From Vicinamibacteria bacterium (GTDB lineage Bacteria > Acidobacteriota > Vicinamibacteria > Vicinamibacterales > UBA8438): a stretch of 64,000 bases of DNA. Below, one piece after another: positions 16,216 through 58,083 of the stretch (the stretch's first letter is position 1; the number at the start of each line of letters is the position of its first letter). A program made the position numbers and the translations under genes. Below the pieces are notes generated by a model, which saw only the letters and a list, made by a program, of their open reading frames with translations, was not told where the DNA came from and made no database searches. Location: assembly GCA_963578725.1 (NCBI GenBank), contig CAUZDS010000008.1:6409-70408 (forward strand). The letters are read 5' to 3'.

Positions 16216-17745
16216 ATGTTCGCCTGTCTTTACGCCCCGCCGCGCGGTCTGGCCTTTCGAGGCGCCGAGGGTGTGCCGCGCGCCAGGTGCGTTACCGACC
16301 AGATCGTGCGTCTGGCGCGCGAGTATTCACCCCGGATCGAAATTCATGGCGACAACCTCGTGGTGCTCGACATCACCGGGTTGACGAGCATGTTTGGCGA
16401 TGCCCGGGAGCTGGGTGCGACCCTACGCCGGTCGGCTGCCGACCGGGGGCTTTATCTCCGGATGGCGGTCGCGTCTACCCGGACCGCGGTGCTGCTGGTC
16501 GTGCAAGAGCGGAGCGGGCTCACGGTGATTGAACCGGGTGGGGAAGTGGTCACACTGGCCTCGCTGCCGCTCGACGTGCTAAGGATTTTGGCGCGGGGGC
16601 AGGCACAGAGTACCGCGACACAGGCGCGTCGTGGCACCTGGGTGTCGAGCGCCGCACTGGCCATTCCCGATTTTGCCCTATTGTCCACGATACGCCGTTG
16701 GGGAGTCAGCACCCTCGGCGATCTGACGCGTCTGCCCCAGGCCGAGCTATTCGAGCGGCTGGGCGAGGGTGGATTGACCTTGCAGCGGTTTGCCCGTGGC
16801 GAGGATGGCGGTCCGCTCGTGCTGGTGCCGGTCGAGGAGCGATTCGAATCGTCGCTGGCGCTCGAGTGGCCGGTTGAGGGGCTCGAGCCGCTGTCCTTCG
16901 TGTTGAGCCGGGTGTTCGAGCAGTTGTGTGCGCGGCTCGAGCGTGCCGGTGTCGGGGCCGCGGTGGTCCACGTGCACCTGAAGCTGGTGACACGGACCAT
17001 CCATACTCGCACATTGCAACTGCCGGCCCCGTTGCGCGACCCGCGGGTGTTACGCACGCTCGTCCTGCTCGATCTGGAATCGCACGCCCCGTCCGCCGGG
17101 ATCGACCAGGTCACGGTGATGGTCGATCCGGTGCCGGCGCGTACCCATCAGTTCTCGTTGCTCGAACGGGCGCGGCCCGCTCCGGAGACGGTCTCGACAC
17201 TGGTCGCACGGTTGACTGCCCTGGTCGGCGCGGGCCGGTGCGGTTCGCCGGCGCTGGTCGATTCGCACGATAGGGCGAGCTTCGAGATGCGGGCGTTCGA
17301 CCCCGAGGCCTGTCGGTTCGACGCGGGCACGTCTCGCACGCGGCCGGGAGGTCGGCAGGACCGTGTGCGGGAGACACCGGTGGACGGCGACTGGCGACAG
17401 GTTGCGGGGCCTTCGGGAGGGGTGCCCCTGGTCCCCATGGTTCGGCGGTTTCGCGCGCCGGTTGCGGCGCGTGTCGCCGTCCGGGACGGCCGACTGGTCC
17501 GGGTCGTGGCGCCACCGGTGTCCAGTGGCGAGGTCATACGCCAGGCCGGCCCCTGGCGCACGTCGGGGCAGTGGTGGACCGATACCGGCACGGTGGCCGC
17601 CGACTCGTCACCCGCCACGGAGTTGGCTGGATGCCAGCCCTGGGACCGCGATGAATGGGATGTCTCGTTGACCGACGGCGGCGTGTATCGAATTTTTCAC
17701 GACCGCCGGGTCGACTGCTGGTTCCTGGAAGGCATGGTGGATTGA
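16216..17745 (+). CDS. imuB: Y-family-polymerase-like protein ImuB
   Basis: 509 aa with N-terminus MFACLYAPP. It has a UmuC-like fold pattern and lies between imuA and dnaE2. Confidence 0.85.
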   Translation: MFACLYAPPRGLAFRGAEGVPRARCVTDQIVRLAREYSPRIEIHGDNLVVLDITGLTSMFGDARELGATLRRSAADRGLYLRMAVASTRTAVLLVVQERSGLTVIEPGGEVVTLASLPLDVLRILARGQAQSTATQARRGTWVSSAALAIPDFALLSTIRRWGVSTLGDLTRLPQAELFERLGEGGLTLQRFARGEDGGPLVLVPVEERFESSLALEWPVEGLEPLSFVLSRVFEQLCARLERAGVGAAVVHVHLKLVTRTIHTRTLQLPAPLRDPRVLRTLVLLDLESHAPSAGIDQVTVMVDPVPARTHQFSLLERARPAPETVSTLVARLTALVGAGRCGSPALVDSHDRASFEMRAFDPEACRFDAGTSRTRPGGRQDRVRETPVDGDWRQVAGPSGGVPLVPMVRRFRAPVAARVAVRDGRLVRVVAPPVSSGEVIRQAGPWRTSGQWWTDTGTVAADSSPATELAGCQPWDRDEWDVSLTDGGVYRIFHDRRVDCWFLEGMVD

Positions 17746-17763: not shown

Positions 17764-20700
17764 ATGTACATCGAGCTGCACACATCGTCCGCTTTTTCTT
17801 TCCTTGACGGGGCGTCCTTACCCGAGGCCCTGGTCGATCGGGCGGCCGAGCTGGGATATCCAGCGCTCGCCTTGCTCGATCGGGACGGGGTGTATGGCGC
17901 TCCTCGATTCCACAAGGCGGCGCTGGCGGCCGGCATCAAACCGATTGTCGGCTGCGAGCTGACGATCGCTAAAGGCTGGGGGGCGGCCTGCTGGCGTCTG
18001 CCGGTGCTAGTCGAATCATCGGAGGGATATAGGAATCTGTGCCGGTTATTGACCCGTATGAAGCTTGAGGTGCCCAAGGGCGAAGGGGTCCTGACCCTGG
18101 ACGATCTTGAAGGGTTTACCACCGGGCTGGTGGCGCTCGCCGGGCGCGCGGCGCTCATGGGGCACCGCTACGGGGTCGGTGGGCTGCTCGATCGGCTCGT
18201 CGGGTTGTTTGGCCGGTCGCAGGTCTTTGTCGAACTGCAGCGACATCTGCTGCGGGACGAGGAGATCGACAACCAGGCGCTGATCGCGCTGGCAGCCGCC
18301 TATCATGTCCCGCTCGTGGCGACCAACGGTGTGCGGTTCGCCGTCGCCGAGGACCGCCCGCTGTATGACGTGCAGACCTGTTTGCGACACAAGACTACCC
18401 TCGACCGGGCCGGTCACCGTCTGGCTCGCAATGCCGAGCGGTATCTGAAGTCGCCCGTCGAGATGACCCGGCTGTTTTACGACCGGCCGGACGCACTGGC
18501 AGCCGCCGGCGAACTGGCCGATCGGGTGGGCTACACGATGGCCGACTTGGGTTATCGGTTTCCCGCCTATCCGGTGCCGGCCGGCGAGACGATGGTCTCT
18601 TTTCTGCGCGCCATCACCGAGGTAGGTGCCCGTGAACGCTATCGCCCGTATCACGACCGTGCCCGGCGGCAGATCGCGCGCGAGCTCGATCTCATCGAGC
18701 AGCTCGACCTGGCCGGGTATTTCCTAATCGTCTGGGACCTCGTGAACTTCTGCCGGCAGCAGGACATCCTCGTGCAGGGACGCGGCTCGGCCGCCAACAG
18801 CGCCGTCTGCTACAGCCTAGGGATCACCGCGGTCGATCCGGTCGGGATGGATCTGCTCTTCGAGCGCTTTCTGTCCGAGGAGCGGGGTGAGTGGCCCGAT
18901 ATCGATCTGGACCTGCCGAGCGGCGACCGCCGCGAACGGGTCATCCAGTATGTCTACGAACGGTATGGTCGGTTGGGCGCTGGGATGACCGCCAACGTCA
19001 TCACCTACCGCGGTCGCAGCGCCGCGCGCGAGGTCGGCAAGGCGCTATCGATCCCCGCCGACCAGATCGACCGACTTGCCAAGATCCTGAACCACTTCGA
19101 GTGGACCGACCCGGCGGACACTCTCGCGCGCCAGCTCGACGGCGTCGGCATCGACCGGACCGACTCGCGGGTCAGTCAATTCAGCGCGCTGTGGCGACGT
19201 ATGCAGGACCTGCCTCGTCATCTCGGCCAGCACTCCGGCGGGATGGTGATCTGCCAGGGGCGGCTCGACGAGGTGGTGCCGCTCGAGAACGCCAGCATGC
19301 CGGGTCGTGTCGTCGTGCAATGGGATAAGGAGGACTGCGCCGACATGGGGATCGTGAAGGTCGATCTGCTCGGGCTAGGGATGATGGCGGTCCTGCAGGA
19401 TACCTTCACGCTGATTAAAGGGGCGCGCGCGGATCGGACGGACGCGGTCGATCTCGCCCGGTTGCCGCCGGACGACCCGGCGGTCTACCGGATGTTGCAG
19501 CGCGCCGACACGATCGGGGTGTTTCAGGTCGAGTCCCGTGCTCAGATGGCGGCGTTGCCGCGTCTGCGGCCCGAACGGTTCTACGACATCGTCGTCGAGG
19601 TGGCGATCATCCGTCCCGGCCCGATCGTGGGCCAGATGGTGCACCCCTACATGGAGCGGCGCGCGGGGCGCGAGCCGGTGCAGTATCCGCACCCCGCGCT
19701 CGAGCCGATCTTACGTCGCACCCTCGGGGTGCCGCTGTTCCAGGAGCAGTTGCTCCGTGTCGCGATGGTCGCGGCCGGGTTCTCGGGCGGGCAGGCCGAA
19801 GAGCTCCGGCGCGCCTTCGGCTTCAAACGGTCGGAGCGGCGGATGGCGGAGATCGAGGTGGCGCTGCGCGAAGGGATGGCCGGACGGGGTATCACGGGAG
19901 AACCAGCCGATCAGATCGTGCAGTCGATCACAGCCTTTGCGCTGTATGGCTTCCCCGAGTCCCACGCCGCGAGCTTCGCGTTGCTGGTCTATGCCAGCGC
20001 CTATCTGAAGGCGCACTACCCGGCGGCGTTCTACACGGCGTTGCTGAACAACCAGCCGATGGGGTTCTATCATCCGGCCACCCTGGTCAAGGACGCCCAG
20101 CGGCGTGGTGTGCGGTTCGCCCGGATCGACGTGCAGCACTCCGGCTGGCAGTGCCGGGTAGAGCCCGATGGCGCGATCAGGCTCGGGCTGCGCTATGTGA
20201 CCGGTCTGCGTGAGGCGCCGGGTCGTGCGATCGAGGGAGTCGGTGTCCGTCCCCCGGCCGGCTCTGATCGAGACACGCCCGCGTCAAGTCGCAGGGTCGC
20301 CGATCGTCGCTCGCTGGTGTGTCCCAAATGCGGGTGCGACGACCCCTCGATGGTCGAGGTCGTGGACCCGGCGACCTCGCACGCCAGGGGGTTTTGCCGC
20401 ACCTGCGCGGCCGACTGGCTGCTGACGACGGAACGGGACGACGAGACCGTAGATGCGGCAAGATCACGATTCACGTCGGTCGAGGATCTGATCGCCCGGA
20501 CCGGGCTGCGCCGCGGCGAGCTGGCAACCCTGGCAGAGATCGGCGCGCTCAACTCGTTCGGATATGACCGTCGGACGGCGCTCTGGCAGATCGAGCGCGC
20601 GGTGAGAACGCCTGGGGAGCTGTTCAAGGAGACAGTCAATCTTCGCCAATCGCTGCCGAGACCCAGGCGGTCAGCAGGCTACGTCGGACCTGCCGAAGCT

Positions 20701-21165
20701 CACCGTTCGATCACGTCGGCGAGCGAAAGCGGGTCGCCACTGGCACCGATGACGCCGGATGAACGTGTAGTCGCCGACTATGCCGGCACGGGATTGACGA
20801 TCGGGCCGCATCCGGTCGCGTTTCGGCGTCAGGAGCTGGCGTTGCGGGGAGTGTTGCGCGCGATCGACCTGCCGCGGGCGCGCAATGGCCGGCGGGTGCG
20901 TGTGGCGGGCACCGTCATCACGCGCCAGCGTCCTGGGACCGCCAAGGGATTCGTGTTTCTGACGCTGGAAGACGAAACTGGTGTCGCCAACGTCATCGTC
21001 CGGCCCGACGTGTTCGCAGCCGATCGGGTCACGATTCTCGACCGGCCGTTTTTGCTGGTGGAGGGGGTGCTCCAGCTGCAGGATGGCGTCACCTCCGTCA
21101 AGGCGGAGTGTTTTCACGACTTCGCCTTCGGCGAGGCGACACCCGAGTCGCGCAATTTCTGCTGA
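17764..21165 (+). CDS. dnaE2: error-prone DNA polymerase III alpha-like subunit DnaE2 (ImuC)
   Basis: 1133 aa. The PHP N-terminus is MYIELHTSSAFSFLDGASLPEALVDRAAELGYPALALLDRDGVYGAPRF. The polymerase core is GRGSAANSAVCYSLGIT...IDLDL. An OB fold lies at the C-terminus. Confidence 0.95.
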   Translation: MYIELHTSSAFSFLDGASLPEALVDRAAELGYPALALLDRDGVYGAPRFHKAALAAGIKPIVGCELTIAKGWGAACWRLPVLVESSEGYRNLCRLLTRMKLEVPKGEGVLTLDDLEGFTTGLVALAGRAALMGHRYGVGGLLDRLVGLFGRSQVFVELQRHLLRDEEIDNQALIALAAAYHVPLVATNGVRFAVAEDRPLYDVQTCLRHKTTLDRAGHRLARNAERYLKSPVEMTRLFYDRPDALAAAGELADRVGYTMADLGYRFPAYPVPAGETMVSFLRAITEVGARERYRPYHDRARRQIARELDLIEQLDLAGYFLIVWDLVNFCRQQDILVQGRGSAANSAVCYSLGITAVDPVGMDLLFERFLSEERGEWPDIDLDLPSGDRRERVIQYVYERYGRLGAGMTANVITYRGRSAAREVGKALSIPADQIDRLAKILNHFEWTDPADTLARQLDGVGIDRTDSRVSQFSALWRRMQDLPRHLGQHSGGMVICQGRLDEVVPLENASMPGRVVVQWDKEDCADMGIVKVDLLGLGMMAVLQDTFTLIKGARADRTDAVDLARLPPDDPAVYRMLQRADTIGVFQVESRAQMAALPRLRPERFYDIVVEVAIIRPGPIVGQMVHPYMERRAGREPVQYPHPALEPILRRTLGVPLFQEQLLRVAMVAAGFSGGQAEELRRAFGFKRSERRMAEIEVALREGMAGRGITGEPADQIVQSITAFALYGFPESHAASFALLVYASAYLKAHYPAAFYTALLNNQPMGFYHPATLVKDAQRRGVRFARIDVQHSGWQCRVEPDGAIRLGLRYVTGLREAPGRAIEGVGVRPPAGSDRDTPASSRRVADRRSLVCPKCGCDDPSMVEVVDPATSHARGFCRTCAADWLLTTERDDETVDAARSRFTSVEDLIARTGLRRGELATLAEIGALNSFGYDRRTALWQIERAVRTPGELFKETVNLRQSLPRPRRSAGYVGPAEAHRSITSASESGSPLAPMTPDERVVADYAGTGLTIGPHPVAFRRQELALRGVLRAIDLPRARNGRRVRVAGTVITRQRPGTAKGFVFLTLEDETGVANVIVRPDVFAADRVTILDRPFLLVEGVLQLQDGVTSVKAECFHDFAFGEATPESRNFC

Positions 21166-24462: not shown

Positions 24463-24883
24463 GGTCGTGATTCTACTCGTGGCCCGAGTTGAACACTTGC
24501 TTTGCCACGGCTCGGGTGATGCAGGACCGCGGGGCGACCGCGATGGGTCCGGAATCCCGGCGTGCTGGTATCATGCGCTGTCTGGGTCGTTGGAGTGTGG
24601 GCCCGCGCCGCGGCGGTCGTGGTCGCGGCCGCCGTCAAGGGGATCGTCTCCGACGACAGTGATCATGACCGATTGTCCGCACGGTGGCCAGGCCGAGGCC
24701 GGTCAGATAACGAGGTTGAGCGTCCCGTGTCAGACGTTCGTGATCTGATGCCCGGGTGGGGTGTTCTGCCTGACGGCGTTGCTCCGCAGTCACACATGTC
24801 CGATTTGTCCCTTCGTCGCGTCTCGCTAGGCAGGCGCCGCGCCTCGGGTTTCGGTCAGCCAGCGTCTGGCACGGGATACTAGA

Positions 24884-28130: not shown

Positions 28131-28736
28131 ATGGGGGTGCGCCGTGTCAAGCCGTGGGTGTTCGCGGCGTGCCTCATCCCGCTCGGTCTTCTCGTCTGGC
28201 GGGGCGCCACCAATGGTCTCACGGCCAACCCGATCGAGTTCATCACCCACAGGACCGGCGACTGGACGCTGCGTTTTCTGCTGATCACCCTCGCAATCAC
28301 CCCGCTGCGAAGGGTGACCGCGTGGAGCAGCCTGGTACAGCTCCGACGGATGCTGGGACTGTTTGCCTTTTTCTACGCGGTGCTCCACTTCGGCACCTAT
28401 CTGGTGTTGGACTTCTTTTTCGCGTTCGACCTGATCCTCGATGACGTCGTGGAGCGCCGGTACGTCACCGCCGGGTTCACCGGGTTCGTGTTGCTGATTC
28501 CGCTGGCTGTCACTTCGACCCAGCGGATGATCCGCCGACTTGGCGGCGCGCGCTGGCGGCGGCTCCACCGTCTCGTGTATGGTGCCGCGCTGGCGGGGGT
28601 CGTGCACTATTTTTGGTTGGTCAAGGTCGACATCCGGCCGCCCCTGATGTACGCCATGATCCTGGGCCTGTTGCTCGGGGCGCGCGTGTGGTTCTGGTTG
28701 TCAAAAAAGGGCTCCGGAGTCTTGTCGCGAGCCTAG
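28131..28736 (+). CDS. msrQ: protein-methionine-sulfoxide reductase heme-binding subunit MsrQ (YedZ)
   Basis: ATG at 28131. KPWVFAACLIPLGLLVW...NPIEFITHRTGDWTLRFLLITLAITPLRR...FYAVLHF. Six TM segments, directly after msrP. Confidence 0.9.
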   Translation: MGVRRVKPWVFAACLIPLGLLVWRGATNGLTANPIEFITHRTGDWTLRFLLITLAITPLRRVTAWSSLVQLRRMLGLFAFFYAVLHFGTYLVLDFFFAFDLILDDVVERRYVTAGFTGFVLLIPLAVTSTQRMIRRLGGARWRRLHRLVYGAALAGVVHYFWLVKVDIRPPLMYAMILGLLLGARVWFWLSKKGSGVLSRA

Positions 28737-28835
28737 GGCCCGTGGTGAAACACCGGGTTACACTGAGACCGGCGATGTACCCAGTTCGTAACTGGATTCG
28801 TCGAGCGATACGCGACGTCTTATCGAGGCAGTCCT
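28734..28835 (+). repeat. stop-adjacent structured repeat, short copy C
   Basis: The sequence begins TAGGGCCCGTGGTGAAACACCGGG...GAGACCGGCGATG. It shares the 5' module and the GACCGGCG block with copies A and B. It contains the hairpins CCAGTT-cgt-AACTGG and CGTCG-n9-CGACG, and ends GAGGCAGTCCT directly before the ATG at 28836. Confidence 0.4.
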
Positions 28836-31655: not shown

Positions 31656-32804
31656 CTAGAAGACCTTGCGTTGTTGCGCAGTGCCGTGCGCGGCCAGCGT
31701 AAACCGCGCTTCAGGCGTCGCACGATCGGAAAGCTGCGCCGTGACGTACTCGCCGACGGCTGGGCCGTGCTTGAAGCCGTGTCCAGACCCGCCGCCCACC
31801 AGCCACACGTTGTCCATCTCCGGGTGTCGGTCGATAATGAAGTCACCGTTCGAGCTGTTCGAGTACTGGCAGACGTGCGCTTCGAGCAGTGGCGCGGCGT
31901 CGAGGGCGGGGACGCGGCGGGTGAGGATCATGCGCGCGACCTCGAGAGCGCCGTCCGAAACGCGCCGCTCGCCGAGATCGGGGTCGAATGGTGGTCCGTG
32001 GTGGTCGAGACCCACCTTGAAGCCGCGCCCTTCCAGGTCCGGGACTCCATAGACGCCACCAGCGAAGTCGACCCACGCCGGCATCGCCGGGGGCGCGAAC
32101 CGCCGGTCGCCGGGCGCGGAGCCGAAGAAGAATACCTCCTGACGTGTTGGATGAATCCGGTCACCGAGCGTGGCGGGAAACAACGTGGGTAGCCACGGGC
32201 CGCAGGCGAAGACAAACGTGCCGGCTGTGATCCGGTCGCCGTCACTCGTGCGCACCGACTCGAGGTGTTCGGTGTCTGCCGGCGGGGTCACTGCTGTGAT
32301 GCGGTAGTCGACGCTCTGCCTGACCGCCTGACGCACGACCGCCTGCACGGCGCGCCGGGCCATGATGACACCCGCTTCGGACTCGAGCACGCCGCGCGTG
32401 ACGGGACCGAAGCTGAGCTGCGGATATCGCCGCTCGAGCTCGGCCCGGTCGAGGATCTCGAACGGCACGCGGAGTCGGCGCAGCGTATCCACGGTCTCAT
32501 CGGTCATCGGGTCGTCCGATCGGGTCATCCACAGGACGCCGGTCTGCGTGAAGAGCTCCAGACGTCCGTCCCGGAAGAGCTCTAGCCACGCGGTCAACGA
32601 GCGTTGCGCCCAGCGCGAGTAGAGCGCGTCGTGGCCGTATCCGATGCGGAAGACGCGGGAGATGCCACCGGAACTGGACCGGGTGTTGCCGGCACCGAAC
32701 GCGTCGACCAGCGTCACCGATCGTCCGCTCCGGCGGAGCTGAAGGGCCGTCCAGGCGCCGAAGACACCGGCGCCGATCACGGCAACATCGGAGACATGAG
32801 ACAT
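31656..32804 (-). CDS. FAD-dependent oxidoreductase (DAO / sarcosine-oxidase-like family)
   Basis: The ATG at 32804 gives MSHVSDVAVIGAGVFGAWTALQLRRSGRSVTLVDA (GxGxxG). The protein runs about 382 aa, with GGSGHGFKHGP near the C-terminus. Confidence 0.85.
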   Translation of the reverse strand: MSHVSDVAVIGAGVFGAWTALQLRRSGRSVTLVDAFGAGNTRSSSGGISRVFRIGYGHDALYSRWAQRSLTAWLELFRDGRLELFTQTGVLWMTRSDDPMTDETVDTLRRLRVPFEILDRAELERRYPQLSFGPVTRGVLESEAGVIMARRAVQAVVRQAVRQSVDYRITAVTPPADTEHLESVRTSDGDRITAGTFVFACGPWLPTLFPATLGDRIHPTRQEVFFFGSAPGDRRFAPPAMPAWVDFAGGVYGVPDLEGRGFKVGLDHHGPPFDPDLGERRVSDGALEVARMILTRRVPALDAAPLLEAHVCQYSNSSNGDFIIDRHPEMDNVWLVGGGSGHGFKHGPAVGEYVTAQLSDRATPEARFTLAAHGTAQQRKVF

Positions 32805-32842
32805 TGATTCGAAACCGGAATGGAACGTGTAGAGTAGCACCA

Positions 32843-33481
32843 ATGTCCGCACGCCGTATCGAGGTCTGTCCGGATGCTGTGCACCTGCCGGCGTACCTCA
32901 CGCTCGATGCGCAACGGGCGCTCGCCGAGCGCTGCCGGTCGATCGGCATGAGTCCGACGGGCTGGTATGTCCCGACGGTGCGTGGAGGCGGTCGGATGCG
33001 CGTGCGGATGGTCTGTTTAGGGCGGCACTGGAATGCCCGGACATACCGCTACGAGGCGGTGCGCAGCGACTACGATGGCCTCCCGGCTCCGGCGCTGCCG
33101 GCCGACCTGGCCGTGCTCGCGTCTCGGCTCGCGGCGGACGCCGGGATGCGTCTGACCCCGGACGTCTGCATTCTCAACCACTACAATCTGGACGGGAAGA
33201 TGGGGCTGCACCAGGACAAGGACGAGGATCCAGACACGCTGGAAAGCGGGGTTCCGATCGTATCGGTGTCCATTGGGGACACGGCGAAGTTCATCCTGGG
33301 CGGCCGTACGCGTCGCGACACCAGGACGACGGTGCTCCTGGCGTCTGGTGATGGGTTCGTCTTCGGTGGGCGGAGTCGTTTGCGTTACCACGGTGTCGCG
33401 GCACTGCTGCCCGGTACCGCCCCCCCGGAACTTGGGCTCGAGGGCCGGTTCAACCTCACGTTTCGGCAGGGCGCGGTCTAG
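32843..33481 (+). CDS. alkB: Fe(II)/2-oxoglutarate-dependent dioxygenase AlkB
   Basis: The ATG at 32843 starts a product containing ILNHYNLDGKMGLHQDKDE...PIVSVSIGDTAKF...RLRYHGV...RFNLTFRQ. The HxD...H facial triad and the RxNxTxR motif are present. Confidence 0.9.
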   Translation: MSARRIEVCPDAVHLPAYLTLDAQRALAERCRSIGMSPTGWYVPTVRGGGRMRVRMVCLGRHWNARTYRYEAVRSDYDGLPAPALPADLAVLASRLAADAGMRLTPDVCILNHYNLDGKMGLHQDKDEDPDTLESGVPIVSVSIGDTAKFILGGRTRRDTRTTVLLASGDGFVFGGRSRLRYHGVAALLPGTAPPELGLEGRFNLTFRQGAV

Positions 33482-33631
33482 CAGCCCGAGGTGAAAGTCC
33501 CGCTGCAGTCGACCGGCCCTGTATACCGGCTGGCGGCGTTGCCGCTCGGTCGAATACCGCCGGTATGCTCCCTCGCCGTGCTTTGCCAGCCAGGAGCGCG
33601 GTTTTGGTTCGCGGGGTCGCCTGAGGCTCGA
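33479..33631 (+). repeat. stop-adjacent structured repeat, copy A (about 150 nt)
   Basis: It starts at the alkB TAG. Thirty-four of its first 40 nt are identical to copy B. The long-range stems are 33483-33491/33620-33628 and 33498-33503/33611-33616. The internal hairpins are 33527-33544 and 33554-33566. Confidence 0.6.
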
Positions 33632-33675
33632 CGCGTGCGCCGTGCGGTTGGGTGTCCGCTACGCAACAGGGGCCG

Positions 33676-34707
33676 CTACCCGCCGCGGGTGTGCATCTCG
33701 AGGTGTGGCTCGTTCTGGAGTTTCTCGACCGGGATCAGCGCCGACCGGTCCGCCGACGACAGCCGTGTCTCCGCGCCGCGGTCGTCTCGCGCCTGCCATG
33801 TCGAACCGATGAGGTCGCGCAGCTCCTCCGCACCGATACCGGCCCGAAGCAGTTCGCGCAGGTCCGTGCCAGTCGGGGCGTAGAGGCAGCGATACCAAAG
33901 CCCGTCGGCGGTGAGTCGGCTGCGGTCGCATCGCCGGCAGAATGGTTCGGTCGTCGAAGAGATGATGCCGAACACGGTGCCGTCCGGAAGCGTGAACCGA
34001 TTGGCCGGGGCGTTGCTATCTTCGACCACCGCTGCGATCGGGCCGAAATGGGCAGACAGTCGTCGCAGCATCTCCTGACGTGAGACGACGTCCCGCATCG
34101 ACCAGCGTGTCGCGCCGCCCACATCCATATACTCGATGAACCGAACCTCGATGCCAAGCCGGCGGCCGAGATCGAGCATTGGTGCCAGCTCATCGTCGTT
34201 CACCGACCGAATCACCACCGTGTCCACCTTGACGCTGTCGAACCCGGCCTCGGTCGCTCGGTCCAGGCCGCGCAGTACCGCGTCGAGGCTATCGAAGCGG
34301 GTCAAAGCCTTGAAGCGGTCGGCGTGCAAGGTGTCGAGGCTTACCGTGATGCGTGGTAGCCCGGCGGATCTGAGCGCCTCTACCTGGGCGGCCAGCAGCA
34401 TGCCGTTGGTGGTCAGCGCCAGGTCTTTGAGCGCCGCCTTCCCCGCCAGCAGCGCGATGAGGTCCGGGAGGTCCTTGCGCAGCAGCGGTTCGCCGCCGGT
34501 GATCCGGATCTTGTCGACCCCAACGGCAGTGAAGATGTCGACAAGGGTGTCGATCTCCTCGAAGGTCAGGATGTCGGCGCGCGGGAGCCAGACATAGTCC
34601 TTCTCTGGCATGCAGTACTGACAGCGCAGGTTGCAGCGGTCGGTTACGGACAGGCGCAGGCTCGTCAGCGCCCGGCCAAGCTGGTCCAGCACCTCCATGG
34701 TATCCAT
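33676..34707 (-). CDS. moaA: GTP 3',8-cyclase MoaA (radical SAM, molybdenum cofactor biosynthesis)
   Basis: 343 aa. LRLSVTDRCNLRCQYCMP...IRITGGEPLLR... plus the C-terminal CRRCDRSRLTADG cluster. Confidence 0.95.
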   Translation of the reverse strand: MDTMEVLDQLGRALTSLRLSVTDRCNLRCQYCMPEKDYVWLPRADILTFEEIDTLVDIFTAVGVDKIRITGGEPLLRKDLPDLIALLAGKAALKDLALTTNGMLLAAQVEALRSAGLPRITVSLDTLHADRFKALTRFDSLDAVLRGLDRATEAGFDSVKVDTVVIRSVNDDELAPMLDLGRRLGIEVRFIEYMDVGGATRWSMRDVVSRQEMLRRLSAHFGPIAAVVEDSNAPANRFTLPDGTVFGIISSTTEPFCRRCDRSRLTADGLWYRCLYAPTGTDLRELLRAGIGAEELRDLIGSTWQARDDRGAETRLSSADRSALIPVEKLQNEPHLEMHTRGG

Positions 34708-42487: not shown

Positions 42488-42659
42488 GCGGCCCGGCCCG
42501 TGTCACGTTCTCATGGCACGGGCTACGAAGGTCCATCTTCGCGTCCGGTCCTCCTCCAGTTGGCATGCTACACTGGGAGGTTCTTGGTACTGACTGTGGA
42601 ACATTCAGACGACCCTGACTCGTCGCGCGTCGGCGCGACCCGACTCGGACGACGAGACG

Positions 42660-44033
42660 ATGCCGCCTCACCGCCGAATCGACGTGGTGCTCGACTCGGT
42701 CAAACGACTGCAGCGGATTGGTGCGTCCGCCAACCTGCTCAACCTACTCCAGAAACAACATCCAGCTGACCTCGCTGAAGTCTTCAGCGAGTTGCCCGAC
42801 AAGGATTGTCGCGGCGCGCTCAAACTGCTGCTCGACCACAATAGCCGCCTCGCGATGGAGGCGCTGATCGAGTACGGCCCCGGGCCTGGCTCCGCGCTGC
42901 TCGCGGACCACCCCGCCGGTCAGATCGCGGTCTGGTTGCAGGAGTTGCCGTCGGACGACGCGGTAGCGCTGATCGACGAGCTGCCGGACGAGCTATCCGC
43001 CGCCGTACTCGAACTGATGCGGCGTCAGGAGTCGGGCGAGGTCGAGAACCTGCTCGAGTACGCCGAGCGCACCGCCGGGCGCATCATGAACCCGACGGTG
43101 TTTGCGCTCTCTGACGATCTGACGGCTGGCGAAGCGATCCAGGCGCTCCAGGGTTCACGCGAGGTGGAGATGGTGTTCTATCTCTATGTCGTCGACGAGC
43201 GCCGGCATCTCGTAGGGGTCGTCTCGCTGCGACGACTGTTGTTGGTGGCGCCGGAGACGCCGTTGCCGCGGATCATGACGACCGATCTGATCAGCGCGCG
43301 AGTGGGCACCGACCAGGAAGAGGTGGCCCAGCACGTCGCCAACTACAACCTGCTGGCGATCCCGGTCGTTGACGACGAGAACAAGCTCGCCGGCATCATC
43401 ACCGTCGACGACGTCATCGACATCATCCAGGATGAGGCGACGGAGGATATCTATCGGCTGGCGGGGGTCAGTGGCGACGAGCACGTGTTCTCGCCGGCGC
43501 TCGAGTCGGTGCGGAAACGGTTACCGTGGCTCGCCGTGAACCTGGTGACCGCCGTGCTGGCCGCCTTCGTGGTGCGGGCGTTTCAGGCCACCATCGACCA
43601 GGTGGTGGTGCTGGCGGTGCTCATGACCATCGTGGCCAGCATGGGTGGCAACGCGGCGACCCAAACGTTGACGATCATCGTCCGGGCGATCTCCCTCGGG
43701 GAGCTGACCTGGGGCAACTCGCGCAAGGCGGTGCTCAAGGAGGCGCTCGTAGGTCTGGGCAACGGGTTGGCGCTTGGTACCGCCGGAGCCACGGTTGCCT
43801 GGTTGATGACCGGGAACGTTTTCCTTGGACTGATCCTGGCGCTGGCGATGGTGATCAATCTGCTGGTGGCCGCCATCGCCGCCACGTTGATCCCGATCGC
43901 GCTCCGGGCCTTGAACATCGACCCGGCGCTCGCCTCTGCGGTGTTTATCACCACGCTCACGGACGTATTCGGGTTCTTTGCCTTCCTGGGGCTCGCGACC
44001 ATCTTCCTGCGGTATTTGCTGCCGGTGGTGTGA
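42660..44033 (+). CDS. mgtE: magnesium transporter MgtE
   Basis: 457 aa. It has an MgtE N-domain, a CBS pair (GRIMNPTVFAL..., LAIPVVDDENKLAGIITVDDVIDI) and a TM domain with GGNAATQT. Confidence 0.95.
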   Translation: MPPHRRIDVVLDSVKRLQRIGASANLLNLLQKQHPADLAEVFSELPDKDCRGALKLLLDHNSRLAMEALIEYGPGPGSALLADHPAGQIAVWLQELPSDDAVALIDELPDELSAAVLELMRRQESGEVENLLEYAERTAGRIMNPTVFALSDDLTAGEAIQALQGSREVEMVFYLYVVDERRHLVGVVSLRRLLLVAPETPLPRIMTTDLISARVGTDQEEVAQHVANYNLLAIPVVDDENKLAGIITVDDVIDIIQDEATEDIYRLAGVSGDEHVFSPALESVRKRLPWLAVNLVTAVLAAFVVRAFQATIDQVVVLAVLMTIVASMGGNAATQTLTIIVRAISLGELTWGNSRKAVLKEALVGLGNGLALGTAGATVAWLMTGNVFLGLILALAMVINLLVAAIAATLIPIALRALNIDPALASAVFITTLTDVFGFFAFLGLATIFLRYLLPVV

Positions 44034-44034
44034 T

Positions 44035-44209
44035 CTAGGAGCCCGTGGTGAGAGCCCCGCTGCATTCGACCGGCGCTGAATCACGACTGGGCGGCGTTAG
44101 TCTCGGTCGGATACTGCCAGTATCCTCCGTCGTCGCGCCTTGCACCGGCCGAGCGCGGCGTCGATCGTGACGGTTCTCGGAGCAATGCGGGGTTTTACCA
44201 GGGGCTCCT
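44035..44209 (+). repeat. stop-adjacent structured repeat, copy B (about 175 nt)
   Basis: It starts 2 nt after the mgtE TGA (CTAGGAGCCCGTGGTGAGAG...). The closing stem is AGGAGCCCGTGG (44037-44048) with CCAGGGGCTCCT (44198-44209). The second stem is CCCCGC (44055-44060) with GCGGGG (44187-44192). The hairpins are 44085-44102 and 44109-44125. Confidence 0.6.
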
Positions 44210-44314
44210 GGCCGAAAGGGCAAGAGGCCGCGGGGAGGCAGTCGATGGAGGGGTGAGGTTTCGCCGCGTTCTTGCTGCAGGCATCACACGGGTGGGGGCG
44301 CGCGCACTCGAACA

Positions 44315-44344
44315 TTGGCCCGCGGGCTGCCCAGGGGCTACAAT
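44315..44344 (+). promoter_or_regulatory. putative recO promoter (TTGGCC-18 nt-TACAAT)
   Basis: The -10-like TACAAT lies at 44339-44344, 37 nt before the recO ATG. The -35-like TTGGCC lies at 44315-44320. Confidence 0.3.
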
Positions 44345-44380
44345 ATGCGTTCCTCGGACGTGGGGCGGCCCGCGCTCGCG

Positions 44381-45130
44381 ATGCCACTCTATACGACAGA
44401 CGCGCTGATTCTGCGCACCTACCTGCTCGGTGAAGCGGATCGTATCGTCGTGTTCCTGACGAGCGACAGGGGCAAGAAACGTGGCGTTGCGAATGGGGCT
44501 CGGCGTCCGAGATCGCGATTTGTCGGAGGGCTCGAGCCGCTGACGCGCGCCCGGCTCGCGTACTTTGAGCGGGAGCGCCGCGACCTCGTGCGGTTGAGCT
44601 ATGTCGAACCGGTGCGGTCACCGTTGATGGTCCGCGACGGGGCTGCGCTCGGGCACGTCGAGTACTTCGCCGAGCTGATCGACGAATGCGCGCCAGAGGC
44701 GGATCCGAACGCGAAGTTGTACCGCCTGGGCGCTGCCGTCATCGACTCGTTGGTTGGGGAGGTCCCGGTCGAGCGGCTGGTGCGCTACTTCGAGTACTGG
44801 GTCCTGCGTCTGCAGGGTGTCTATCCGTCCCTGCTCGCCTGTCATCGGTGCGGCGCCGACCCGGCGTCCGGCGGGCGCCTGGACCCGGCGGGTGCCGGGT
44901 TCGCCTGCGTGGCCTGCGCGACCGGCTCCGGGGTCGCGCTCTCGGCCGAGTCGGTTCAGTTTCTCCGGGCGGCGGCGGGCACGCCCCCCGGGCGGCTGTC
45001 GGATATCGAGTTGCCCGAGCACGCGGCGAGGGAGCTGGAACGGGCGCATCGACAGCTGATCACGGCGCATCTGGAGAAGGAGCTTCGGTCGGTGAAGGTG
45101 CTTCGCGCCATGAATCAGATGGCGACGTGA
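44381..45130 (+). CDS. recO: DNA repair protein RecO
   Basis: The ATG at 44381 gives [37 protein letters not shown] (OB fold). The zinc-finger region is CHRCG...CVAC. Confidence 0.9.
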
Positions 45131-54835: not shown

Positions 54836-55746
54836 GCGGACCGCCTCCGTCCGCGGCCGCCGGGGGCGGCCGTCTGCGTGGCGCCGGCACGTTGCCTAGC
54901 GGCCTCGTAGACGATCAGGGCTGCGGCCACGGCGATGTTGAGTGATTGAACCGGTGGGTGCATCGGAATCGAGACGACCGCGTCGGCGGCATTGACGACG
55001 CTGGCGTCGAGCCCGACACCTTCACCCCCGAGCCAGATCAGGCAAGGCTCTCTTAGGTCGGTGGCCGACACCGTGGTCCCGCCACGCGGCACGGCCGCGA
55101 GCACTCGCAGACCGCGCGTGGCCGCTTCGACCAACGCCTCGGCCGCGTCGCCTATCCGGACGATCGGCAGTCGAAATGCGCTACCCATCGAGCCACGGAG
55201 GGCTTTCCATCCGTACGGGTCGGCGCCGCCGACGGTAACGACGCCGGTCGCGCCGCCGGCCTCGACGGCCCGGATGACAGCACCGATGTTGCCGGGGTCC
55301 TGCACACCGAGGAGTCCGAGCACCAGCGGTCCTTCCGGAGGGGCCGCCGCGTCAAAACTGGTCGTATGTAGCGTGCCGAGCGCCACGAGACCAGCCGGTG
55401 TGGAGGCCGGGCTGAGCGCATCCATCACCGTCGGCGAGACACGCACCAGCCTAGTGGCGGCGGGGTCGAGGCGGTCGAGAAGGGCAGTCGACCGGCGCGC
55501 AACCGCCGCATCCGTGCTGACAGCCGCCAGCTCGATCTGGATACCGGCCGCCAGCGCCTCTTCGATTAGACGCGGGCCTTCGAGCAAGACCGTGGAGTTT
55601 GTCGGCGTGGAGGAACGGGCGATTCGCCGGAACCGCGCGACGATCGGATTACGCCGGCTGGTGATCTGTTCCACGCTGGTGTTCCGAGTCAGAAGTTCGC
55701 GGATAGGTTGTTCGGACCGCCGTACGCGGCCGGCCGGGCTCGACAC
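54832..55746 (-). CDS. TrmH/SpoU-family RNA 2'-O-methyltransferase
   Basis: 304 aa. The SpoU motifs LGVQDPGNIGAVIR, GGEGVGL and IPMHPPVQSLNIAVAAAL are present. Its stop overlaps the rarA start (ATGA). Confidence 0.85.
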   Translation of the reverse strand: MSSPAGRVRRSEQPIRELLTRNTSVEQITSRRNPIVARFRRIARSSTPTNSTVLLEGPRLIEEALAAGIQIELAAVSTDAAVARRSTALLDRLDPAATRLVRVSPTVMDALSPASTPAGLVALGTLHTTSFDAAAPPEGPLVLGLLGVQDPGNIGAVIRAVEAGGATGVVTVGGADPYGWKALRGSMGSAFRLPIVRIGDAAEALVEAATRGLRVLAAVPRGGTTVSATDLREPCLIWLGGEGVGLDASVVNAADAVVSIPMHPPVQSLNIAVAAALIVYEAARQRAGATQTAAPGGRGRRRSA

Positions 55747-55942
55747 GACGCTGGTCTGGACAATGCCCCGAGGCCATTACGGGAGATTTCCAGACGTAAC
55801 GCATGTCGCCCCTGAAAGATGTCCGCTTCCGGTCCCGTACCGGTGCGTGAGCCTCGCCGCCGGCAGTCAAGGGAGCATAGCAGATGTGCTAAGGTTGGCG
55901 GTCGGGTCCTGCCGCACGACGGGGGGCCGAAGACGGGGATGG

Positions 55943-56407
55943 ATGAAGGCGGAGCTGATCAAACGGTTCGAAGACGGAATCCGCGACCTCGAGCGGGAGT
56001 TGCACAGCGAGCTGCCGAAGGAGATCAAGCGCGCGCGCGAGCTCGGCGACCTGCGTGAGAACGCGGAATATCAGGCCGCCAAGGACCGCCAGGTCTTCGT
56101 TCAGGCGCGACTTGCGATGCTTCGTAAGCGTGTTACCGAGTTGTCACTGATCAATCTGGATCGAATCCCAGAAGATCGTGCCAGCTTCGGGTCCACCGTG
56201 CATCTTCGCGAGTCGAAAGGCCAGATGGTGGTCTACCAGTTGGTCATGCCCGAAGATGCGGATCCAAACAAGGGGTGGATCTCGACCGCCTCGCCCATCG
56301 GCCGCGGACTGATGGGCAAAGAGGAGGGGGAGGAGGTCTCCGTGCCGACCCCCAACGGCACGCGTGAATTCGAGCTCGTGAAGCTCATTACCATTCACGG
56401 CGAGTAG
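55943..56407 (+). CDS. greA: transcription elongation factor GreA
   Basis: The ATG at 55943 starts ARELGDLRENAEYQAAKDRQVFVQARL...FGSTVHL...ISTASPIGRGLMGKEEGEEV. Only the last 154 codons of the 471-aa track ORF are GreA-like. Confidence 0.9.
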   Translation: MKAELIKRFEDGIRDLERELHSELPKEIKRARELGDLRENAEYQAAKDRQVFVQARLAMLRKRVTELSLINLDRIPEDRASFGSTVHLRESKGQMVVYQLVMPEDADPNKGWISTASPIGRGLMGKEEGEEVSVPTPNGTREFELVKLITIHGE

Positions 56408-56592
56408 ACCGTCGCGTTGTGAGCTCCGAGCCTCAGTGGCGTGTGTCATGAGTGCGGTGGCATTTGGCCGACGATGCATCGCGCGCACCGCCCTTCTCGT
56501 CGGTCGAATAGTTCCGACATGCTCCCTTCTCGTACCTCCAGTGGACGGTGCGTGGCAGCGTACTCGCGCACCCTCGGTGCGTCACCGTACTC

Positions 56593-58083
56593 ATGACACG
56601 GACCTTTGAGGTATCCGCTCCGTCCATGCCGTCCCGTTCGGCTACTGGTTACTCACCCCACCTCCGAACGGCGCTGGTGTTGACGGGCACCGGGACGGCC
56701 GGCGCCTATCATGCCGGCGTCCTTCGTGCGCTGCACGAGGCCGGGGTCAAGGTCGACCTGGTAGCCGGGCGTGGTATCGGTGCGGTGGGGGCAGCGTTTG
56801 CGGCGGTCGACGGCGCTGCGCAGCTCTGGGAGCCCGCTGGTCTGTGGAGTGTCCCGGGCGCGACGCGTCTCTACCGCTGGCGACCCGCGCTCCGCACCGC
56901 CGCCTGGATTCTCGGCGTCGCGCTTGGTGCCCTGGTGCTGCCGCTCAGTGCCGTAGTGCTCGCAGCACTGGTCTATCCGGTAGCCTATCTGCTACGGGTC
57001 GTCGGGTTGACCGGCAGCGACCAGCTGACCACCGGGCTCGGACAGTTGGTCGACTGGGTCTTCGCGCCGGCGGCCCTGCCGATCTGGCTACCCCGGCTGG
57101 TCGTGGTCGCGCTGGTTCTCTTCATCGCGGTGTTGGTCTGCGCGGCCGTTGTGGCTTCGATGCGTGCCCGCGCACAGCGGCGGACGCGTGGTGCGCTCTG
57201 GTGGGTGTTGCTCGGGGCGCCGCTCGACGTCGGTCGCGTGCGGGGCTGGTTCGCCGACGGCTTGTGGAAGCTGATGCGTGGTGCCGTGTCAATCGGGCGG
57301 CCCAGTCCTGTGGATCTTGGGAGGCGATACGCCGACCTAGTGTCAGAGAATCTCGGCCAGCCTGGCTTCCGTGAGCTATTGATCACGGCGCACGACCTCG
57401 ATGGCCGTTGTGATCTGATCTTCGCGTTACTGAAGGAACCATACCGCCAGCGGTTCTTCCGGAGTCGGCACGGCGAGTCGGAGAGTGACCGGCGTCTGGA
57501 AGCGTTTGATCTGGCCGGCGGCGCGCGGAGACACTGGTTCGACGCGTTCGCGGCGGCGATCAGTGTGCCGATAGCCACCGAGCCGTGGCTGGTGCGGTTC
57601 GCCCCGTCGAGCAGCTGGCAGGGCGAGACCCACCGGGTCTGTGACAGGCCCGACTCGGTGGGGCGACTGCTCGACGAAGTGGCCCTGGCCGGCGCCGGGC
57701 AGGTGATCCTGGTATCGGCGGTGTCCGGTCCCTCAGGTCCGCACACGCTGGGTACCGGTCGGCGGGACGGCCGGGGCCGGATTGGGGAGTCGCTCTCGGC
57801 GATCGAAGCGGCCGCGGTCCGCGATGCCGTCACCTCGCGCGGGGGGCTGTTCGAGGCGGTGTTCGTGATCCAGCCGGTTCACAACCCGCTCGGACCGTTC
57901 GATTTTACTGGGTGCTACGACGAGCGGTCGGACCGCGAGCAGACGCTGGCCGAACTTTTGGATCGCGGGTATGACGACGGACATCGACAGTTCGTCGGGC
58001 CGGTGGTCGGCGCCAGCGGCGAGGCGATCGAACCTGCGCCAAAACCGCGTGCCGTGGCCCGTGTCCCCGGTTCTGACAGCTGA
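56593..58083 (+). CDS. patatin-like phospholipase-domain membrane protein, apparently lacking the Ser nucleophile
   Basis: ALVLTGTGTAGAYHAGVLRALHEAG is a glycine-rich-loop equivalent. VAGRGIGAVGAAF occupies the GxSxG position. Two or three TM helices lie mid-protein. The start is uncertain (56593 or 56626). Confidence 0.7.
   Translation: MTRTFEVSAPSMPSRSATGYSPHLRTALVLTGTGTAGAYHAGVLRALHEAGVKVDLVAGRGIGAVGAAFAAVDGAAQLWEPAGLWSVPGATRLYRWRPALRTAAWILGVALGALVLPLSAVVLAALVYPVAYLLRVVGLTGSDQLTTGLGQLVDWVFAPAALPIWLPRLVVVALVLFIAVLVCAAVVASMRARAQRRTRGALWWVLLGAPLDVGRVRGWFADGLWKLMRGAVSIGRPSPVDLGRRYADLVSENLGQPGFRELLITAHDLDGRCDLIFALLKEPYRQRFFRSRHGESESDRRLEAFDLAGGARRHWFDAFAAAISVPIATEPWLVRFAPSSSWQGETHRVCDRPDSVGRLLDEVALAGAGQVILVSAVSGPSGPHTLGTGRRDGRGRIGESLSAIEAAAVRDAVTSRGGLFEAVFVIQPVHNPLGPFDFTGCYDERSDREQTLAELLDRGYDDGHRQFVGPVVGASGEAIEPAPKPRAVARVPGSDS

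Follow-up and report, generated by a model that had tools for sequence, protein, structure and literature searches.

A CTAG-bounded palindromic repeat behind mgtE in a Vicinamibacteria genome belongs to a previously undescribed family, probably of non-autonomous mobile elements

The mgtE-recO locus and its structured repeat

The 64,000-nucleotide (nt) stretch of contig CAUZDS010000008.1 analysed here (the window, to which positions refer unless another locus is named) comes from a Vicinamibacteria bacterium and carries a structured repeat, copy B, in the spacer between the genes mgtE and recO. The mgtE gene (42660-44033; Pfam MgtE_N/CBS/MgtE on the identical contigs L001 and L002; L numbers designate retrieved loci) ends with the stop codon TGA at 44031-44033, and copy B begins 1 nt past this stop. 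We conclude that copy B is an old, partly decayed (fossil) copy of a mobile repeat. Its family is previously undescribed and is in kind of the miniature inverted-repeat transposable element (MITE) or REPIN type (REPIN, hairpin formed by repetitive extragenic palindromic (REP) sequences), which is a known kind; its members are very probably palindromic mobile elements, non-autonomous and integrating at CTAG/TAG sites.

A preliminary description of the block, made from the sequence alone, had listed several pairings, all of which lie at the coordinates it gave: AGGAGCCCGTGG (44037-44048) is complementary at 11 of 12 positions to CCAGGGGCTCCT (44198-44209), CCCCGC (44055-44060) pairs with GCGGGG (44187-44192), the internal hairpins GACT..AGTC and GGATACTG-c-CAGTATCC occupy 44085-44102 and 44109-44125, and the extra hairpin CGTCGATCGTGACG at 44159-44172 is absent from copy A, a second copy in the window. 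Only 0.1% of the window's 12-mers have, 130-220 nt downstream, a reverse-complement partner that matches at 11 of 12 positions. The 12-nt terminal stem proposed in that description is thus truly complementary, but not in its proposed length, as in intact relatives the pairing continues inwards through all of the 166-nt unit and this stem is only its outer section. Copy B folds with -96.9 kcal/mol (z = -4.85), a value equalled by none of 200 shuffles. Its nearest relatives, L026 and L034, share the extra hairpin CGTCGATCGTGACG, and the three form a 178-nt subtype. The copies in the window are the most divergent of the whole set, copy B being at most 80% identical to any other copy; since, in addition, the syntenic contig L075 has only the 3' arm of a further window copy (copy C) at the orthologous place, we regard the window copies as old.

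A dispersed family of CTAG-bounded palindromes

A pattern composed of two motifs common to copies A and B (pattern 1) retrieved 58 loci from species-representative genomes, four of them chance matches within genes. The hosts are mostly metagenome-assembled genomes (MAGs) of Vicinamibacterales (Acidobacteriota); a single Candidatus Rariloculus chromosome (Gammaproteobacteria) accounts for about 25 of the 58 loci, and a second gammaproteobacterial MAG for two. A second pattern (pattern 2), independent of the first and drawn from the element's other half, yielded at least 119 loci in metagenomes. When a family profile built from 39 copies was run on the retrieved loci, it gave at least 244 non-overlapping matches, including at least 123 non-redundant full-length copies, at unrelated loci. 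The commonest length of full-length copies, CTAG to CTAG, is 166 bp; they have no coding capacity and the layout 5'-CTAG CAGCCCGTGGCAAAAGTCCCGC TGCATTCGACCGG ... CCGGTCTCGGTGCGAC GCGGGACTTTTGCCACGGGCTG CTAG-3'. Their terminal inverted repeats (TIRs) read GCAGCCCGTGG...CCACGGGCTGC in subfamily 1 and GTGGCCCG...CGGACCAC in subfamily 2.

The whole window contained no Rfam match at the gathering score. At E<=10, copy B and one intact array gave only generic long-hairpin matches to microRNA-precursor models and one long non-coding RNA model. An origin of the tandem arrays described below from self-cleaving ribozymes or viroid-like RNAs was rejected, as no ribozyme model matched. We found no description of the repeat in Rfam or in the searchable literature.

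Fold, covariation and subfamilies

As a whole, the unit forms an imperfect palindrome. Its consensus fold, a single rod with the apical hairpin GAATAT-TCCCG-ATATTC, was derived from 39 length-uniform copies in place of the gapped 43-sequence alignment, for which RNAalifold gave a poor structure. The rod is equally stable on both strands, with consensus (alifold) energies of -156 and -160 kcal/mol, and an intact copy treated as single-stranded DNA reaches z = -11.1 and -10.7 on the two strands. In the 43-sequence alignment, 91.8% of the cells are paired, against about 40% in slid controls, and changes on both sides are found in 27 of 66 pairs (151 cells), an extent reached by none of 500 shuffles. 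The terminal complementarity noticed in copy B is therefore real and maintained in other copies through compensatory changes. Among the variable pairs, A·C mismatches (89) are not rarer than G·T pairs (56 once four ancestral G·T pairs are removed; these account for 134 of the 190 G·T cells in total).

The core motifs of copy B correspond to invariant or nearly invariant alignment columns, which partly reflects ascertainment by the search pattern. The same core occurs in subfamily 2, which was retrieved independently from metagenomes and includes copy C: GCATTCGGCC..GATGCATCC..CTCGTCGGTCGAATA..CTCCCT..CCCTCGGTGCG, as in subfamily 1. The outer arms of subfamily 2, in contrast, are of unrelated sequence, yet of equal length and still complementary to each other (for example AGTGCTGACTTTCATAAATACGGTG / CACCGTATTTATGAAAGGCAGCACT and GTGGCCCCGTTCGTAATTGCGGTG / CACCGCAATTACGAACGGGACCAC), and the unit is bounded by CTNAG. 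The covarying arms together with the conserved core suggest that a folded hairpin, and not the end sequences alone, would be needed at some step of the life cycle.

A third variant has 70-100 extra nt in one internal hairpin; in the carriers L094 (4697-4943), L103 (8926-9159), L092, L099 and L114, 45-100 extra nt are located at one fixed point (model position 61/62). The insert contains GGTCTCGCCGAAGCCGTGGCGAAGGCGGATTG in L094, L103, L092 and L099 and is found with this motif in both arm subfamilies; that of L114 differs. We interpret the insert as either a variable expansion segment or another small element, nested at this point.

Presence, absence and rearrangement of copies

Four orthologous mgtE-recO spacers (MgtE 86-89% identical) measure 37-240 bp and hold no intact copy. 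The spacers of L062-L064 are empty, and that of L061 contains a possible remnant, of which about 45-65 bp align with the start of the minus-oriented copy of L103 (nhmmer E = 0.011, weak). In L103 itself (82-88% nt identity to the window), the CTAG of a copy forms the mgtE stop, and this copy lies in the opposite orientation and belongs to the third variant. Because of these empty spacers, the reversed copy and the possible remnant, we conclude that the mgtE-recO site has repeatedly undergone insertion or rearrangement and that copies there decay without visible consequence. The earlier view of the element as a 3' appendage of mgtE is not supported, given orthologous spacers without an intact copy and a copy in L103 that is reversed and of another subtype. 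The end of MgtE (window 44010-44038 compared with L103 8890-8930) differs by a 5-nt indel just before the element, the window reading ...LLPVV-TGA followed by TCTAG and L103 ...LEAGA-TAG within CTAG; the end of the mgtE gene thus appears to have been remodelled around the insertion site. Copy B contains no terminator-like T run. If mgtE transcripts run into it, the predicted -97 kcal/mol hairpin may serve as a 3' stabiliser or processing site, as an incidental by-product.

Presence or absence at orthologous sites was also observed in the corC-era and greA spacers and in an imuB-like region, all comparisons being between species-level relatives, not strains. The corC-era spacer reads GGGA-CTAG-(158 bp)-CTAG-GAATG in L062 and GGG-TAG-ACCGG-ATG in the window, so that the copy of L062 appears to have inserted exactly on a TAG stop, in a spacer of few nt. 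One TAG thereby becomes two, as would also be the case if the element brought along its own CTAG. The era-mgtE spacer of L062 (1640-1850) contains a tandem array with an approximately 80-nt unit of two inverted halves of about 40 nt (GCGGATCGGCCGGATGTAACGCCGATCCGCCGGACGTAAA...). A solo arm of the family terminates this array, which the window lacks. A small hairpin, GGCCCGTGTCACGTTCTCATGGCACGGGCTAC, directly follows the era stop in the window (42489-42525). Its halves resemble the arm tips CAGCCCGTGG / CCACGGGCTGCTAG, and it may be an internally deleted remnant or a chance hairpin.

Copies are about 97% identical between two gammaproteobacterial MAGs in which the adjacent orthologous gene is 72% identical, and the best identity between copies of Acidobacteriota and Gammaproteobacteria is 89%. 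Up to four copies occur per 8 kb (L059, L005), and both orientations are found within 8 kb in L006 and L059. In L015, L054 and L006, copies form head-to-tail arrays with periods of 159-161 bp that share one CTAG, and in L018 one copy is nested within the apical hairpin of another; read for a duplication, this nested copy is ambiguous. The arrays of L015 (4347-4829) and L054 (138-461), independent of each other, share a junction that lacks CAG (…GGGCTGCTAG|CCCGTGG…; period 159, expected 162), which points to either the joint movement of a dimer or a recurrent 3-nt slippage. Near-identical subfamily-2 copies in L087/L121 and L123 have the same right flank, CCATGAGCACCCGAGCA, and different left flanks, which hints at recombination between copies.

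The promoter of recO

The promoter-like site TTGGCC-18-TACAAT at 44315-44344, suggested in the preliminary description to be recO's own, withstood the analysis: it is the only such site in 43900-44450, and shuffles contained none. L103 and three of the four orthologous spacers keep the TACAAT box. Its distance to the recO start is 29-37 nt in L061 and L064; in the window, a normal gap of 36 nt separates it from ATG 44380, the codon with which the orthologous starts align (MPLYTTDAL...). On the identical contigs, recO was called from ATG 44345, directly after TACAAT. The sequence GGGCTGCTACAAT at the recO promoter of L061 was considered as a remnant of an element end and rejected, as the conserved -10 region of recO has the sequence GGCT(G)(C)TACAAT also in orthologues free of the element.

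Placement at stop codons and strand

Among the matches listed, the terminal TAG is the stop of a coding-like open reading frame (ORF) of at least 100 codons in 45 of 123 full copies (37%). Eighteen of these are in sense orientation (5' end, the gene reading into the + strand), 26 in antisense orientation (3' end, - strand), and one abuts stops at both ends. The idea of a structured RNA tied to mgtE is not supported: family-wide, stops are abutted in both orientations, and the fold is equal on both strands. The position of copy B next to a stop may be explained without any link to mgtE, because CTAG- and TA-containing sites in G+C-rich genomes would largely be TAG stops and short spacers. More generally, the occurrence of both orientations at stops, the equal folding of both strands and A·C mismatches that are not rarer than G·T pairs argue against a + strand RNA role. 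Copy orientation gave no signal when compared with local GC skew, taken as a proxy for replication direction at the Rariloculus loci, the 8-kb windows being too noisy for this purpose.

Two copies in L115 (2757-2868 and 3100-3255), a close relative with 84-88% nt identity, lie in a stretch homologous to the 3' part (window 17301-17650) of an imuB-like ORF, which in the window spans 16216-17745 upstream of a dnaE2-like gene (17764-21165). They represent either an in-frame-tolerated insertion or a pseudogene.

Further copies in the window

Besides copy B, the window contains at least four further copies or remnants of the family (Table 1). The 5' CTAG of copy A provides the TAG stop (33479-33481) of an AlkB-like 2OG-Fe(II) oxygenase gene (32804-33481; Pfam PF13532), in line with the stop-codon pattern, and the copy lies between convergent genes, with a moaA-like gene (33676-34707; Pfam PF06463/PF04055) on the minus strand. 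With its degraded 3' arm, it folds no better than shuffles (z = -0.68). Copies A and B align with a mean column identity of 78% (pairwise) or 65% (family alignment), show compensatory changes in their hairpins and both match the family profile; the assignment of copy B and the block at 33479-33631 to one element family was thus correct.

Copy C, bounded by CTCAG...TTGAG, starts 24 nt downstream of the end of a greA-like gene (54992-56407) and is followed by a patatin-like ORF. It has kept the family core; its arms, GTGTCATGAGTGCGGTG / CACCGTACTCATGACAC, are unrelated to those of subfamily 1 and complementary to each other. Since its 3' arm is retained in L075, its insertion predates the split of that lineage. 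Copy D ends in CTAG directly at the GTG start (24884) of a SET-domain gene (Pfam); this region could not be aligned with L115. Fragment E lies upstream of a radical-SAM/methyltransferase gene at 28836.

Table 1. Copies and remnants of the repeat family in the window and parts of copy B (MFE, minimum free energy).
Feature	Position	Strand	Evidence and remarks
Copy B	44035..44211	+	177 bp, 178-nt subtype; nhmmer family profile E 1.4e-29, model positions 2-164
Copy B, ends	5' CTAG 44035-44038; 3' CTGG 44208-44211		3' CTGG is a decayed CTAG
Copy B, outer helix, 5' arm AGGAGCCCGTGGTGAGAGCCCCGC	44037..44060	+	pairs with 44187-44209 in MFE fold; homologous columns covary across 43 copies
Copy B, outer helix, 3' arm GCGGGGTTTTACCAGGGGCTCCT	44187..44209	+	MFE fold, covariation, coordinate check
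Copy B, core motifs	44056..44125	+	CCGCTGCATTCGACCGG, GACT..AGTC hairpin, CTCGGTCGGATA, apical hairpin GGATACTG-c-CAGTATCC
Copy A	33478..33640	+	nhmmer E 5e-26, model positions 2-129; 3' arm degraded
Copy C	56431..56612	+	subfamily 2; nhmmer subfamily-2 profile E 2.5e-25; fold z = -5.94
Copy D	24764..24883	+	decayed, partial, ends ...GGGATACTAG; nhmmer E 8.8e-09, model positions 47-165
Fragment E	28733..28784	.	arm-only remnant CCTAGGGCCCGTGGTGAAAC...; nhmmer E 7.7e-05

Search for a mobilising enzyme

In the 8-kb windows around the listed loci, no autonomous partner or mobilising enzyme was found. No cognate insertion sequence (IS) with matching ends was present among the matches listed for the 177 pattern-retrieved loci, and a search among pairs of ends 0.7-3 kb apart yielded no autonomous IS either. 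Truncated copies abut housekeeping genes, and the ORFs beside them encode a kinase and an acyl-CoA dehydrogenase and no transposase. All-against-all clustering of ORFs followed by Pfam assignment returned ABC transporters, NHL repeats and Ffh and no transposase family; 256 ORFs lying up to 600 bp from copies were scanned against Pfam in bundles, with only recurring families reported, and no transposase or Y1_Tnp was among these. Because truncated copies, ORF clusters and flanking ORFs all lack such an enzyme, we consider the element to be non-autonomous. A pair of solo arms in L147 was rejected as an IS: the ORF it flanks, which was not individually scanned against Pfam, has an HExxH motif, and neither an element-like 3' end nor a transposase-like feature was seen. 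No copies occurred in the plasmid collection or in viral contigs.

Discussion

Based on these data, we propose the following hypothetical mode of propagation, in which (i) the near-full palindrome of about 166 bp, bounded by CTAG (CTNAG in subfamily 2), would move as a non-autonomous DNA element; (ii) an enzyme encoded elsewhere in the genome would move it; (iii) its folded hairpin, most likely in single-stranded DNA, would be recognised by this enzyme; and (iv) integration would take place at CTAG or TA-containing sites. The enzyme might be a DDE transposase that duplicates TA or TNA (IS630/Tc1-mariner-like or IS5-family-like) or an HUH/Y1 enzyme (like RAYT, the REP-associated tyrosine transposase, or IS200/IS605). 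The preliminary description had left it open whether the terminal complementarity is an RNA closing helix or the TIRs of a MITE; our results favour the MITE and disfavour the RNA.

Several observations weigh against a mobile palindromic element of this kind, besides the absence of a partner enzyme near the copies. Presence and absence of the element at orthologous loci, which had been suggested as a check, was indeed found. For copy B, no empty site exact to the base and with a proven target duplication was obtained, and a metagenome pattern scan for its empty site gave 0 hits. Target-site duplication is also unproven for the family as a whole, because CTAG is its own reverse complement, because the 21 copies in which both flanks deviate from CTAG include only two with directly identical flanks, not above shuffles (p = 0.35), and because the middle N of CTNAG is unmatched in most subfamily-2 copies. 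Reverse-complementary flank pairs (three) are as common in the same 21 copies. A plain TIR-type MITE does not predict a conserved core combined with freely covarying arms. Four G·T pairs are kept on the + strand only, so that an RNA-level constraint may act on one strand, and the hairpin of copy C has stayed good since before the L075 split, possibly by selection rather than chance.

The class of the enzyme can be approached through the ends of the element and its fold. A DDE-type MITE would derive, by internal deletion or de novo, from an IS630/Tc1-mariner-like or IS5-family IS, whose outer ~25 bp would act as TIRs bound by a trans-acting transposase, with duplication of TA in subfamily 1 (CTAG) or TNA in subfamily 2 (CTNAG). 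We consider this a plausible candidate, with a chance somewhat short of even. The inverted ends directly adjoin C-TA-G on both sides in 47 of 108 copies, the subfamily-2 flanks read C-TNA-G, and within the 5' foot (C 83%, T 85%, A 83%, G 94%; GTAG rare) the outermost C is less well kept than the inner G, which fits a boundary between flank and element. TA within CTAG is a known target of IS630, and this fits a GCAGCCC...GGGCTGC element flanked by TA. The arm motif GTGGCAAAAGTCCC presumably resembles the ends of IS5 and Himar1. A precedent is MITEPsy1, an IS5-derived MITE with a ...GAAAAAG.. repeat that inserts at CTAG/YTAA with a 4-nt duplication (PMC3189936). However, directly identical pairs are not in excess among variant flanks, most subfamily-2 copies leave the N of CTNAG unmatched, and recognition of double-stranded ends would explain neither the compensatory changes in the arms nor a core common to subfamilies with unrelated arms; in addition, no IS with such ends was found among the 58 genome matches, into which the search pattern reached only 76 nt of the element. 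The alternative is an HUH/Y1 single-strand hairpin element, comparable to REPINs (RAYT/TnpAREP) or to palindrome-associated derivatives of IS200/IS605, in which the folded strand would be the substrate, the core and the conserved mismatches would be protein contacts, and cleavage at CT^AG at the hairpin foot would leave no target duplication. The geometry of the hairpin is kept by covariation at free arm sequence, with conserved asymmetric mismatches and bulges; xTAG and CT are conserved at its foot; the parse CT|element|AG fits both subfamilies, the unmatched N included; there is no evidence of duplication, head-to-tail arrays share one CTAG, and the location is extragenic. The compensatory pattern has been reported for REPIN hairpins (PMC3116915), and TnpAREP cuts at CT beside a hairpin with a GTAG foot (PMC8266576). 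We nevertheless regard this mechanism as rather unlikely, since the foot motif is CTAG and not GTAG, a 166-nt unit with arms of about 60 nt compares poorly with two REPs of 20-40 nt, and REPIN-RAYT systems are described as mostly vertically inherited, whereas this family is about 89% identical across phyla. Moreover, both orientations occur within 8 kb (L006, L059) and show no relation to local GC skew, and no RAYT-like gene was seen near copies, although singletons could be missed.

A functional structured RNA, in which the repeat would be a cis-acting element of the 3' untranslated region (UTR; a stabiliser, processing site or terminator/insulator) or a small RNA and its multi-copy state would be secondary, could account for the strong covariation and the conserved core, the four G·U pairs kept on the + strand only, the frequent location of copies right after stop codons and a fold of copy C (z = -5.9) that has been kept over a long time. 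It is very improbable in view of the random orientation to the abutting gene (18 vs 26) and the equal folding of both strands, and because copies decay and orthologous sites are empty with no sign of a consequence (the 3' arm of copy A, the single arm in L075, the spacers of L062-L064), copy D is located at a gene start, the copies of L115 lie inside the imuB-like homologous region, and there is neither a terminator-like T run nor an Rfam family match. A new type of structure-dependent element, which we consider improbable, would use the ~50-nt core at the hairpin tip as a recognition module, and the arms, free in sequence but constant in length (~26 bp), would serve as a ruler that sets the point of CT^AG cleavage; it would home precisely onto TAG stops and regenerate them, and would be moved either through an RNA or single-stranded intermediate or by a class of enzyme so far not connected with substrates of this kind. 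In a weaker variant, hosts may have co-opted intact copies as orientation-independent 3'-end hairpins.

If the repeat is a non-autonomous mobile palindrome, as we think very probable, copy B and at least four other blocks of the window should be annotated as repeats or mobile-element remnants and not as riboswitch-like or 3' UTR RNA candidates. Covariation-based RNA screens of Vicinamibacterales and related metagenomes will keep flagging the family as false 'structured RNA'. Among its unusual traits are the preference for insertion at TAG stops (37% of copies), which spares the gene, and its sharing between Acidobacteriota and Gammaproteobacteria at up to 89% identity. The inverted pattern of constraint, with a conserved core and arms that vary freely yet stay complementary, points to a step in transposition that involves a folded strand, and the identity of the mobilising enzyme would tell an unusual DDE MITE from a REPIN-like system outside the known lineages.

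The family resembles several known systems in part. With REPINs and REP-containing bacterial interspersed mosaic elements (BIMEs; RAYT/TnpAREP), it has in common extragenic, multi-copy hairpin units with no transposase inside, halves kept complementary by compensatory changes, xTAG at the hairpin foot with an adjoining CT, tandem clusters, and the insertion of copies into or beside existing ones. However, its foot is CTAG and not the GTAG found at the 5' foot of REP, its 166-bp unit has a conserved non-palindromic core of 50 nt where REPINs have two short REPs and a spacer, near-identical copies occur in two phyla, and no RAYT gene was identified in the 8-kb windows. The IS5- and IS630-family MITEs (MITEPsy1, Correia/NEMIS, RUP, ERIC-type) are likewise 100-170 bp long with inverted ends at CTAG/TA-type sites, intergenic and co-transcribed with neighbours, with long RNA hairpins as a by-product. 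In contrast to these, the whole unit is palindromic here, and the freely covarying arms around a conserved centre are the opposite of the usual MITE pattern; a duplication is undemonstrated and no parent IS was found. The palindrome-associated transposable elements (PATEs) of IS200/IS605 are also non-autonomous and structure-dependent, with a fixed tetranucleotide at the insertion point and no duplication, but they have two separate subterminal hairpins and no TIRs, whereas here the two ends pair together. Integron attC sites differ in that they have RYYYAAC/GTTRRRY boxes in place of the ends CTAGCAGCCC...GGGCTGCTAG and a variable instead of a conserved centre, and the present repeats are dispersed beside housekeeping genes in both orientations with no cassette arrays. 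Both are nonetheless imperfect palindromes located right after stop codons and recognised, or in our case probably recognised, by their structure, with covarying arms and conserved mismatches.

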